64,000 nucleotides of DNA. It comes from Waddliaceae bacterium (GTDB lineage Bacteria > Chlamydiota > Chlamydiia > Chlamydiales > SLFE01). Made by a program: the position numbers and the translations under genes. The notes beneath the pieces were generated by a model. That model was not told where the DNA came from. It worked only from the letters and a program-made list of their open reading frames with translations, and did no database searches. This document shows, piece after piece, positions 11,201-53,448 of the stretch. How positions within the stretch are numbered: the stretch's first letter is position 1; each line of letters starts with the position of its first letter. The stretch is taken from the NCBI GenBank assembly GCA_963771045.1, contig CAVYRW010000001.1, positions 2,211-66,210 of the forward strand. Direction: 5' to 3'.

Positions 11201-11331
11201 TTTCCCTACTATAACAATAAACACTCATTGCCTGTATTGCCCACAGAGCTGATTGTCCACATTTTTTCTTATCTGAATCCCAAAGAGTTAATAGACGTCT
11301 CTTATGTTTCAAAAGATTGGTACTGCATCAC
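11201..11331 (+). pseudogene. N-terminal F-box domain of a gene disrupted by the IS903-like element
   Basis: Translates to LPVLPTELIVHIFSYLNPKELIDVSYVSKDWYCIT up to the target-site duplication. Confidence 0.8.
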
Positions 11332-11393
11332 GGCGTTGTTGCATAAATCACCACTGAGACCACCGAGCTCACTGAGAGATTATGAGAGAGGAA

Positions 11394-11801
11394 TTAAATG
11401 ATTAGACGCCTAATCCCATTTTTTAGAAGTTTTACATTGAAATTGATGAGCAAACCTCTGCCACCACCATTATGCTTAAGATAGGATAGAAGTTGGGCCT
11501 CATGAACAGGCAAGAAATTGGCCACAGATTTTATCTCCAAAATAACCTTATCTTCCACTATCATATCGATCCGGTAGCCTGAGTCTAGCTTTTTATCACG
11601 ATAAATAATAGGTACTGGTATCTGCCGGTTAACTTTCAAACCCGCAAGGTTCAACTCGTAGCAAAGACAAGTTTCGTATGTCGATTCAAGCAAGCCTGGA
11701 CCTAATCTTCGATGAACTTCAATCGCAGCACCTATGATTTCCCCTGTTAAAAGGTCATTTCTTTTTTGGTTGGCTTCTTCAGTTGTGTGGGTACTAGTCA
11801 T
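11394..11801 (-). CDS. GxxExxY protein (PD-(D/E)XK nuclease-like fold)
   Basis: LGPGLLESTY, RIDMIVEDKVILEIKSV and QLLSYLK motifs. Confidence 0.92.
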   Translation of the reverse strand: MTSTHTTEEANQKRNDLLTGEIIGAAIEVHRRLGPGLLESTYETCLCYELNLAGLKVNRQIPVPIIYRDKKLDSGYRIDMIVEDKVILEIKSVANFLPVHEAQLLSYLKHNGGGRGLLINFNVKLLKNGIRRLII

Positions 11802-11885
11802 CTTTTCTCCAAAAAGGGCGAATGCGAGCTTGCCGACAAATACCTAATACTCTAATTTTTAGTTGCAACAAATTGGAGGATCAAG

Positions 11886-12830
11886 ATGAAGGCAAAATAT
11901 CGCATTCGCAACTGGAACGACTATAACAAATCTCTTATTCAAAGGGGAAGCATAACTGTTTGGTTTTCTGAAGATGCTATCAATAAGTGGATGGCTCCAA
12001 AAGAAATAGGAAAAAAGGGGCGTCCAAAACTCTATTCTGATGACGCTATTCTCACCGCGCTCATTATTCGATCGGTTTTTCATCTTCCATTGAGAGCACT
12101 CGAAGGATTTTTGACATCTCTTGTTATGATTTTATCTGTTGGTTTATCGATTCCTTCTTATACTCAAATTTGTCGGAGAGCTAAGTTGTTGGGGCAAGAG
12201 TTGAAGAAACTTTCGAAAAAAAAAGTCACCAATATTGTAATCGATTCAACCGGTTTGAAAGTGTACGGAGAGGGTGAATGGAAAGTTAGGCAGCATGGAA
12301 TCAGTAAAAGGCGAACATGGAGAAAGCTCCATCTGGCAGTCTGCCCTGACTCTCACGAAATTATTTTCGAAATTCTTACTGAAAATAACGTTGCAGATTG
12401 TGAAGTGTATCCAAAACTTCTCGAGGTAATGCCAAAATCAGTTAAGCGCACATATGGAGATGGGGCTTATGATACTAAGCGATGCTATGCTGCAAATGTA
12501 GTTCACGGCTCAATTCCTATTATTCCACCCAATAGGAATGCTGTTTTTCGAGAAAACATATCTCCTTCTTGGAAGATGCGGAATATCAGTTTGCTGGAAA
12601 TTTCAGGTTTAGGAGGTGATGATGATGCAAGAAAATTATGGAAAAAGTTGAAAGGTTATCATCGTCGATCACTTGCAGAAACAGCCATGTTTAGATTTAA
12701 ACGATTCTTTGGAAATGATTTAAGAAGTAGAACTCTGGAAACCCAAAGGGCTGAATCAAGGGCAAAATGTGAAGCACTAAATATAATGACAAAGCTGGGA
12801 ATGCCTGAAAGTGAATTAATAGCAGCTTAA
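11886..12830 (+). CDS. IS903-type DDE transposase
   Basis: NW.DYNKSLIQRGSIT.W, IDSTGLKVYGEGEW, DGAYD and YHRRSLAETAMFRFK motifs. Confidence 0.95.
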   Translation: MKAKYRIRNWNDYNKSLIQRGSITVWFSEDAINKWMAPKEIGKKGRPKLYSDDAILTALIIRSVFHLPLRALEGFLTSLVMILSVGLSIPSYTQICRRAKLLGQELKKLSKKKVTNIVIDSTGLKVYGEGEWKVRQHGISKRRTWRKLHLAVCPDSHEIIFEILTENNVADCEVYPKLLEVMPKSVKRTYGDGAYDTKRCYAANVVHGSIPIIPPNRNAVFRENISPSWKMRNISLLEISGLGGDDDARKLWKKLKGYHRRSLAETAMFRFKRFFGNDLRSRTLETQRAESRAKCEALNIMTKLGMPESELIAA

Positions 12831-13085
12831 ATCAAATCTCTCATATTCTCTCTGTGCGCTCTTGTGAGCTCTGTGGTTAATTACGCAACAAAGCCCTGCA
12901 TCACATATAGTTCTGTAATATGGAAAAAGCATTGTTAAAGGGTTTGCCTTAAAATTTTAAATATTGATCTTAAGGATTCGCAAAATTAATATTGTTTAGA
13001 TCACCCCTTTGAAACAGTCAAATACGCTGCGATTTGGCAAAAAGGTTGGAATCAAATCAAGGAATTTCAAACCAAAATCTCACGC

Positions 13086-36168: not shown

Positions 36169-36340
36169 AGCCTTGTAGCAATATTTATCACAAGAGCACG
36201 CAGAGAGGGTATGAGATCTCATGTCCTATGCTGCTATTAACTCACTCTCTGGCATTCCCAATCTTGTCATGATATTTAGTGCTTTGCATTTTGCTCGAGT
36301 TTCCGCTCGTTGACTCTCAACTACTCTACTTCTTAATTTA
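36169..36340 (-). mobile_element. Diverged 3' end remnant of a relative of the GxxExxY-carrying IS903 element
   Basis: Minus strand encodes LRSRVVESQRAETRAKCKALNIMTRLGMPESELIAA*, followed by the same CACAAGAGCACGCAGAGAG subterminal repeat. Confidence 0.85.
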
Positions 36341-52785: not shown

Positions 52786-53448
52786 TCTTCGTTTTTCTAT
52801 AATTTCGGGCACAAACGACGTGTCACTTACATATTCTTTTGTCAGGTCTACAAACAAAATTTCTTGAGTCTCTTCATCAGCTGCAAGGTGCAATTTTCGC
52901 CATTCACGTCTTTTGCCGGGTCCATGTTTTTTGACTTTCCACTCACCCTCTCCGTACATCTTAAGCCCTGTAGCATCAACGACAACATGTTTAACAGCTT
53001 TATTTTTTAGAAGATGCTTGGGAAACTTAAGTTTTTTCATCCTCTTACATATTTGAGTGTAACATGGTACGGGAAGATCAACTCCTAAAATTCTAATCAA
53101 AGATCTAAGATACCCTTCCAGAGCACGGTAAGAAAGTTTGAGGATAAATTTGATGGTCAGCGCAGTTTCAATAACTGTATCTGAAAAGATGAAAGGTGCT
53201 CCTTTTTTCCCTTTTTGAGCCTTTGCCTTCCAAGATTCGATGGCTTTTTTGTGAATCCAGAAAGTTAGACTTCCACGATTTGCCAGGGATTTGTTATACT
53301 CAGACCAGTCACGTTTTTTGTGGCTCATGGGGCATCTTCCTTTGTGCAAAAAAAAGAGTTTACCCCTGTTTTTTTTCTCCTATCAAGTCTCAATTTTGAT
53401 CTTAGCTAATTTTTTTCATTTTTTCATAAGGAATTAGGCAACACATCC
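52786..53448 (-). mobile_element. Truncated second IS903-type element
   Basis: WSEYNKSL.NRGSLTFW and DATGLKMYGEGEW motifs; left end GGATGTGTTGCCTAA; C-terminus missing. Confidence 0.88.

Follow-up and report, generated by a model that had tools for sequence, protein, structure and literature searches.

An IS903-group insertion sequence carrying a GxxExxY cassette in an environmental chlamydia

Here we describe a 1564-bp insertion sequence (IS) of the IS5 family, IS903 group, which carries a GxxExxY gene beside its transposase gene and a set of phased repeats, called arms below, inside each of its ends. It lies at positions 11332-12895 of a 64,000-nucleotide stretch of a Waddliaceae genome (contig CAVYRW010000001.1; this whole stretch is the window, and its coordinates are used throughout), and both of its genes are intact. 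Several described systems come close to it. IS that carry passenger genes between their ends are called transporter IS (tIS). In REP/RAYT (REPIN) systems, which pair repetitive extragenic palindromes with REP-associated tyrosine transposases, the RAYT enzyme is an HUH Y1 transposase of the IS200/IS605-like type. The transposon Tn7 duplicates 5 bp of its target. Its heteromeric TnsA-TnsB transposase is described as cleaving both strands at each end (10.1101/2021.02.11.430876). Plain IS903-group elements, in rows such as those of ISPam1 and ISPpa8 in PMC3281130, measure 1050-1054 bp and make 9-bp target duplications, in agreement with the baseline of ~1.05 kb and 9 bp given in an earlier sequence-only reading of the window.

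The window element resembles the IS903 group in its IS5-family DDE transposase, in termini that start GGC.TTGTTGC as in 21 control ends of gene-less relatives, in its 9-bp duplications and in its 18-bp terminal inverted repeats (IRs), which fall within the 15-27 bp range of the group. It differs from the group in its length and its second, divergent gene, and we regard it as a derived, atypical member; moreover its ends form inverted repeats of ~58 bp with three phased heptamers, a feature of 0 of the 21 gene-less relative ends. As in tIS, a non-transposase gene moves between the IRs (16 of 16 copies), but here the passenger comes with cis repeats of its own at both ends, and the association spans a clade of 12 sampled lineages and is not a one-off. 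The likeness to REP/RAYT is that GxxExxY genes elsewhere in the phylum are bracketed by inverted repeats, and that gene-less doublet hairpins far outnumber the genes in one genome (G022; 138 against 2). Unlike RAYT, however, GxxExxY has a predicted PD-(D/E)XK fold, Pfam giving only PDDEXK_3 for the 135-amino-acid protein; the GxxExxY arm consists of three direct heptamers and is not a palindrome; and the element's own genome is without free hairpins, with three array matches outside IS copies and remnants. With Tn7 the element shares, as an analogy only, a putative PD-(D/E)XK-fold nuclease gene beside a DDE transposase gene and repeated subterminal sites, but GxxExxY gave no sequence match or ranked fold match to TnsA (PDB sequence search, Foldseek and VIA, among the matches listed), the duplication is 9 bp long and no TnsC/D/E-type genes are present. 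Our literature search found no paper on a GxxExxY-plus-repeat cassette and none describing such a cassette fused with an IS. IS with passenger genes being a known kind, the novelty lies in the fusion with a GxxExxY repeat cassette.

Anatomy and mobility of the element

Below, 'composite' denotes an IS903-group element with transposase, GxxExxY gene (or its remnant) and arms. The features of the window element are as follows.

11323-11331 (no strand): left 9-bp target-site duplication, CTGCATCAC, identical to 12896-12904
11332-11349 (+): left terminal IR of the IS903-group type, starting GGCGTTGTTGC; the terminus type is common to 23 composite and 21 control ends
11350-11389 (+): left arm, made of ACCAC, three phased CACNGAG units (period 9) and an ATGAGAG box (repeat search and ends table)
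11394-11801 (-): GxxExxY / PDDEXK_3 gene, 135 amino acids (PF13366 and TIGR04256 matches)
11802-11885 (no strand): divergent intergenic region, 84 bp, free of arms (read in the sequence)
11886-12830 (+): IS5-family (IS903-group) DDE transposase gene, 314 amino acids (NF033579, PF13737 and PF01609 matches; trees)
12837-12877 (-): right arm, the inverted counterpart of the left, with ACCAC, three CACN(N)GAG units and an ATGAGAG box (repeat search and ends table)
12878-12895 (-): right terminal IR (sequence, repeat search and ends table)
12896-12904 (no strand): right 9-bp target-site duplication, CTGCATCAC again (read in the sequence)

The sequence-only reading had described this unit, from 11323 to 12904, as bounded by IS903-like IRs and a perfect 9-bp duplication and as holding an intact transposase gene and a divergent, intact GxxExxY gene, all of which can be read directly. 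It had also proposed a second inverted pair just inside the IRs. That pair is present, with its CACNGAG units, but it joins the IR without a gap, so that the 'second layer' is a functional reading with no visible break in the sequence. The two 18-bp IRs are identical to each other at 0.78 of positions, 4 nt separate the left arm from the stop codon of GxxExxY, and the unit period within the arms is 9-10 on both sides. A repeat search returned two inverted pairs, 11332-11363/12864-12895 (77% complementary) and 11365-11389/12837-12861 (88%). Since the pairs are offset by a single base, each end amounts to one imperfect inverted repeat of ~58 bp. The transposase matches NF033579 (E 3.9e-86, 289 bits, cut-off 140) as well as PF13737 and PF01609, and a Pfam scan gave it no extra domain; the source names in its cluster are 'IS5 family transposase' or 'hypothetical protein' only. 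The product of 11394-11801 (-) matches PF13366 (E 2.4e-41, 141.2 bits, cut-off 22) and TIGR04256, GxxExxY (E 3e-43, 146.9 bits, cut-off 35). A promoter and terminator scan found four promoter-like sites where 4.0 were expected, and an Rfam scan at E up to 1 returned one chance-level match (16.6 bits, gathering score 86).

Our data show an active element of the IS903 group with a GxxExxY cassette inside it. A BLASTN search with the element in all five contigs of its own 2.57-Mb genome returned fragments and 16 full-length copies, the latter at least 99.8% identical. Of the 16, 12 lie between perfect 9-bp duplications, each with a different sequence, and because of these target duplications we can say that the DDE transposase does the moving. 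The reading frame of GxxExxY is open in 16/16 copies and that of the transposase in 15/16, the remaining one having a 1-bp deletion; among 15 copies of 1564 bp there are six polymorphic sites (five synonymous, one F-to-L). All 18 PF13366 matches of the genome lie within the element or its one interrupted copy. Copies without the gene, the outcome that would have made the window copy a one-off capture, were thus not what the search returned: both genes are kept at distinct sites. The copies, their duplications and the finding below that among IS903-group elements arms occur only with GxxExxY or its remnant support the earlier proposal that a GxxExxY-plus-repeat module and an IS have fused into one mobile unit. 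Heptamer arrays are essentially restricted to the element in this genome: a regular expression for at least two phased CACN(N)GAG units hit 75 sites, of which 64 lie in the 16 full copies, 8 in element remnants and 3 elsewhere, compared with 1, 0 and 4 sites in three mononucleotide shuffles of the genome.

The element also occurs beyond its own genome. At least eight full copies are present in a genome of the same genus (G001), and four loci of another genome (L186-L189) encode, at other sites, a transposase with 100% and a GxxExxY protein with 98.5-99.3% identity to those of the window. Together with L047 and L156 these make six loci in other genomes, or five distinct copies, three of which have a perfect 9-bp duplication. 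When 400-nt flanks of the six loci were compared with the own genome, four gave no match and two matched in part at 87-90%. Between these genomes the element thus differs far less than the chromosomes do, an indication of recent transfer or invasion. Contigs from two soil runs (X1, X20) and a salt-marsh run (X13) cover the element, with 12 of 15 pieces at 99% identity or more. In these three runs and a further salt-marsh run (X3), contigs end at the left end of the element with four different loose ends, and X1 contigs also bridge the left junction of the window copy; X1 may be the sample from which the window derives.

Some copies depart from the standard form. Four full copies lack a target duplication (C4:790462, C4:2001623, C4:116597 and C3:21526). 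Reciprocal recombination between copies was considered for these, but on comparison of the flanks by eye none pair up. A variant copy in the own genome (G000:C4:1701314-1704285; L018, L019), with its own 9-bp duplication ATATATAAT, matches the window copy at 100% in its first 349 nt and at 78% in the remainder. A 1.4-kb insertion, which codes for a Mutator-family (PF00872) transposase, interrupts its GxxExxY gene, and an 8-bp overlap (element positions 342-349) flanks the insertion. A single miniature of ~305 bp (G000:C2:86189-86491) consists of element positions 6-58, with the left IR and arm, fused to the terminal 250 nt that contain the right arm and IR, at 92% identity. Within the window, 36188-36336 and 52881-52958 (C1:38398-38546 and C1:55091-55168) are 74-80% identical to parts of the transposase gene and are probably remnants of related elements.

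Arms, cassettes and the composite clade

To compare arms and gene among relatives, we examined 28 loci of the phylum with relatives of the transposase. Arms occur in four of them: G255, with a transposase 93% identical to ours and a GxxExxY gene; G296 (68%), with both arms and the gene; G283, where both arms, the last GxxExxY codons and a shortened transposase mark a deletion remnant; and G147, a shortened element with the right arm only. The other 24 are plain, measure ~1.1 kb and include relatives at 59-62% identity. The architecture of the window element recurs in G011. Among the best 80 loci from all phyla, at one genome per species, 5 have GxxExxY, 1 has arms only and 74 have neither, and all six with the gene or arms are chlamydial or untitled. 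Of the best 80 metagenome loci, 10 reach at least 65% transposase identity, and GxxExxY is visible in 7 of these 10; L286 has the right arm on a contig that ends before the gene, and L287 and L311 are without a right arm. The remaining 70, at 61% or less, include two with GxxExxY.

ACCAC at 18-29 nt from the tip, followed by at least two strict units, was found at 21/23 composite ends, compared with not even one heptamer unit at the 21 control ends. In 21/23 composite ends the arms adjoin the IRs in mirror positions, 0-10 bp inside them. These counts show that the arms are part of the cassette, or gene, rather than of the IS family.

In a careful transposase tree, from which one short row (L178) was dropped, the composites form a clade of 5 rows (support 100/99). 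A quick tree that includes metagenome rows places them in a 12-row clade, with a value of 91 in the Shimodaira-Hasegawa-like approximate likelihood ratio test. Eleven of its rows have GxxExxY or a remnant and one, L286, an arm only; the 12 lineages come from several chlamydial families and metagenomes. The sister group consists of L287, L311 and a plain element, is free of arms, and joins the composites in a 15-row clade at 98. We show in this way that the association of gene, arms and IS is old and stable within one clade, and the tree suggests that the composites of the clade had one origin and have been stable since. L293, L290 and the G147 remnant are placed in another, poorly supported part of the quick tree and may be separate captures or recombinants. 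The elements are likely mosaic, because synonymous divergence between the window and G255 copies is unequal (0.74 in GxxExxY, 0.34 in the transposase) and because identity in the variant copy L018/L019 drops from 100% to 78% after 349 nt. At another locus (L170; G162:C24, 2695-2741), a 47-bp unit consisting only of two abutting IS903-type IRs lies beside a full gene-less element.

The arms have a counterpart at GxxExxY genes without this transposase nearby. We searched 300 sampled genomes of the phylum for PF13366, which is present in 94, usually in 1-5 copies, and took 40 loci for flank analysis. Directly 3' of the stop codon, many of them have CTCTGTG or CTCGGTG three times, ending in GTGGT; other GxxExxY subfamilies have different units (CTTTGCG, CTCTGCG or CTCACTG). 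A unit-agnostic detector for at least three phased 7-mers found arrays downstream of the stop in 22/40 loci, one of the 22 being a simple CTTT run, compared with 7/160 control windows taken at these loci. In 11/40 loci a regular expression also located an inverted CAC..GAG array upstream of the gene, no more than ~115 nt from its start, so that the gene is bracketed by arms there, as it is in 8/8 aligned cassette copies of one genome, G016. At some loci the partner array directly follows the first and the two form a hairpin. The window transposase was found within 1.5 kb of the gene at 0 of the 40 loci, and the array of ACCAC plus three CACNGAG units follows GxxExxY stop codons in many genomes at loci free of the transposase over that distance. 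The window element fits the cassette layout, with an array directly after the stop codon and the inverted partner at the other IS end.

Matches of the pattern CACNGAG-N1-3-CACNGAG number 138 in G022 (0 with the reversed pattern as control), 235 in G016 (0), 241 in G011 (4), 266 in G025 (58) and 62 in G028 (5); G022 has 2 PF13366 matches. The tie between GxxExxY genes and CACAGAG-type inverted repeats, which the sequence-only reading had put forward, is therefore real in this phylum, as seen in the 40-locus flanks, in G016 and in the hairpins. In G028, a solitary IS903-type IR with an arm (L073; G028:C1, 1564-1600) lies beside an apparent tRNA gene end, next to a free heptamer hairpin.

Other IS have taken up the cassette as well. 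The 1.9-Mb genome G016 (loci L092-L115 and L266-L280) has 67 PF13366 matches and ~15 whole cassettes, and in it an arm-gene-arm unit of ~710 bp recurs at 94-98% identity directly after a transposase of two open reading frames (ORFs; PF13340 DUF4096 and PF01609 DDE_Tnp_1). We take this ORF pair to be typical of the IS427 group. About 45 further copies in G016 have both arms but lack all of the gene except its last third, and 15 of these that were aligned are 96-99.9% alike. In the IS903-group element of metagenome contig L290 (1-1931), GxxExxY and a full heptamer hairpin separate the left IR from the transposase gene, with both genes on one strand; this looks like a separate capture in another layout. 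From these two configurations it appears that IS have captured the cassette repeatedly, with the split arms of the present clade as one form that such capture can take.

Gene-less miniatures in G025 (loci L361-L384) suggest that the two layers of an end are held by different constraints. The family has 56 matches in the genome; its members, of ~180 bp, are built as IR-arm-interior-arm-IR, and one member has a perfect 9-bp duplication. Among the 12 most complete copies, mean pairwise identity is 0.25-0.28 in the flanks, 0.54 and 0.49 in the IRs, 0.65 in the interior, 0.74 in the box, and 0.90 and 0.85 in the arms. Arm identity being so much higher than IR identity, the arms appear to have been kept after insertion while the transposase's own sites decayed. 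Mobility by arms alone, in the form of miniatures without IRs, was considered for this family and rejected, as on inspection most carry degenerate IRs.

The GxxExxY protein

An alignment of 48 GxxExxY sequences has G34, G36, E39, Y42, D79, E89 and K91, among others, as invariant residues, and these conform to the PD-(D/E)XK superfamily pattern E...D...ExK. The AlphaFold model (predicted local distance difference test score 92.7) has the element order alpha-alpha-beta-beta-beta-alpha-beta. Foldseek against the PDB gave the Holliday-junction resolvase Hjc as best match (2wiw; E 9.2e-3, template-modelling score 0.45), with E above 0.001 for every match. VIA-align against 48,161 chains gave R.SwaI at Z 8.0 (root-mean-square deviation 3.2, 113 aligned), CinB at 7.8, BpuSI at 7.2, Cas4 SSO0001 at 7.0, BglII at 6.6 and Hjc at 6.5; such Z values are middling alone, and the listed matches are almost all PD-(D/E)XK nucleases. 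The 135-residue protein is thus modelled with a PD-(D/E)XK core fold that has its acidic and lysine residues in place, and is a putative nuclease. A PDB sequence search returned only RelE, at a non-significant E of 0.37-0.79. A predicted complex of two GxxExxY copies scored 0.01, against a mark of 0.42, which speaks neither for nor against such a complex.

Codon comparisons indicate that the gene is under purifying selection. The dN/dS between the window gene and a solo gene of G002 is 0.18. Against G255, run with X at an internal stop, the proportions of nonsynonymous (pN) and synonymous (pS) differences are 0.080 and 0.736, and against the composites of G296 and G011 pN is 0.23-0.24 and pS saturated (0.79-0.83). 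PDDEXK_3 is listed as of unknown function, with multiple transfers, in PMC3424549, and the portions of the GxxExxY / PDDEXK_3 literature that we searched give no function for the family.

A proposed nested unit and its alternatives

For how the parts work together, the reading that we prefer, and hold to be about as likely as not, is one of nested selfish systems: the nuclease would recognize the arms, the pair would persist by a constraint of its own, and the IS would be its vehicle. The outer layer is the IS903-group IS, whose DDE transposase acts on the 18-bp IRs with 9-bp duplications and accounts for every own-genome copy. The inner layer is, in its anatomy, a captured GxxExxY cassette, a small putative PD-(D/E)XK nuclease gene with two cognate arms, each of three heptamers spaced by about one helical turn. 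Because the arms lie directly inside both IRs, the transposase gene is now between them. The nuclease would recognize them as it presumably does in transposase-free cassettes, the nuclease-arm pair would be kept by the same benefit, whatever it is, that preserves GxxExxY cassettes elsewhere, with a REP/RAYT-like layout, and the cassette would use the IS to travel within and between genomes. Within the own genome we saw no sign of arm-based movement, only DDE transposition.

Several points weigh against such nesting. The link between nuclease and arms rests on adjacency, which linkage alone would also give. The own genome has no gene-less hairpins despite its 16 intact GxxExxY genes, and only three array matches lie outside IS copies and remnants. 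Except for dead deletion copies, we saw no loss of the gene within the 12-lineage clade; a pure rider should be lost sometimes, and a role in the element's own propagation fits better with its constant presence. We can offer no simple path from a cassette that brackets its gene to arms that enclose a transposase gene. Finally, it could be gene conversion or a later spread by way of the arms, and not function, that accounts for the higher conservation of the arms in the G025 miniatures.

If nesting does hold, the element is a case of nested selfish elements whose inner and outer ends are differently constrained, as in G025: a small mobile element of an environmental chlamydia would have absorbed a second selfish unit and now spread with it as one piece, giving a handle on the role of an orphan nuclease family. 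With one nuclease gene, two candidate sites and a transposase readout through 9-bp duplications, it is also a compact natural test system for the GxxExxY family.

The constant presence of the gene leads to the first alternative, a possible though unlikely one, in which the nuclease-arm pair has been co-opted and is now part of the transposition machinery. By analogy with Tn7, GxxExxY on its phased units would assist in end pairing, in control of the transposase or in second-strand cleavage. The mirror positions of the arms, 0-10 bp inside both IRs at 21/23 ends, would suit this, as would the likeness of the two arms of one element (0.78, compared with 0.71 to the arms of other elements), although the finding that 17 of 5000 permutations reach 0.78 is no true probability, since the elements are related. 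Unit periods are likewise shared within an element; both arms of L302 and of G283 have a period of 8. The gene has been kept in all sampled lineages of the clade despite the saturated synonymous sites, it is intact in 16/16 own-genome copies, and the two-protein transposase of Tn7 (10.1101/2021.02.11.430876) provides a precedent. On the other side, the distance from tip to ACCAC varies over 18-29 nt, which is awkward for a fixed cutting geometry. In G016, with its different IS type, ~45 copies have a shortened GxxExxY compared with ~15 full ones, which argues that the gene is dispensable in cis there. Gene-less IS903-group relatives transpose well, with 5-7 copies in each of G066, G251, G087 and G074, and the transposase itself has no extra domain. 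TnsA was not among the 50 best fold matches listed, an absence that speaks neither for nor against this alternative.

The stronger form of co-option, that GxxExxY docked on the heptamers is a working transposition subunit (a second-strand or end-processing nuclease, or an end-pairing factor), we find doubtful. Were it true, this would be the first IS5-family element with a two-protein, TnsA-TnsB-like transposase, and the first function for the large orphan GxxExxY family. The clade-wide association and the mirror arms do make a question about transposons testable, namely whether a one-gene IS can gain a second end-acting protein.

It is improbable that the gene is host-beneficial cargo, a defence-type or repair nuclease amplified by the IS, with the arms as regulatory or terminator sequences. 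The patchy distribution of PF13366 (94/300 genomes), the multiple transfers and unknown function listed for PDDEXK_3 (PMC3424549) and the restriction enzymes and Cas4 among the fold matches would be compatible with such a role, but the host has no evident benefit from sixteen identical copies, one arm by itself is no hairpin and its partner lies 1.45 kb away, and arms persist in gene-less copies. Most improbable of all, the arms would be only an extended binding site of this clade's transposase, their likeness to GxxExxY repeats being coincidental or secondary: the 58-bp end is indeed one imperfect inverted repeat, with within-element left/right identity as high in the subterminal parts (0.73-0.89) as in the first 18 bp (0.72-0.94), but ACCAC plus three CACNGAG units follows GxxExxY stops in many genomes without a transposase match within 1.5 kb, 0/21 ends of gene-less relatives carry the array, and old miniatures keep their arms while the IRs decay.

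As for the insertion site, the window copy interrupts a short F-box-like ORF at 11228-11331 (+; Pfam F-box-like, E 1.1e-11). Resumed past the element (12896-12940), its frame would stop 11 codons on, and so the ORF was already only a small fragment before the insertion.

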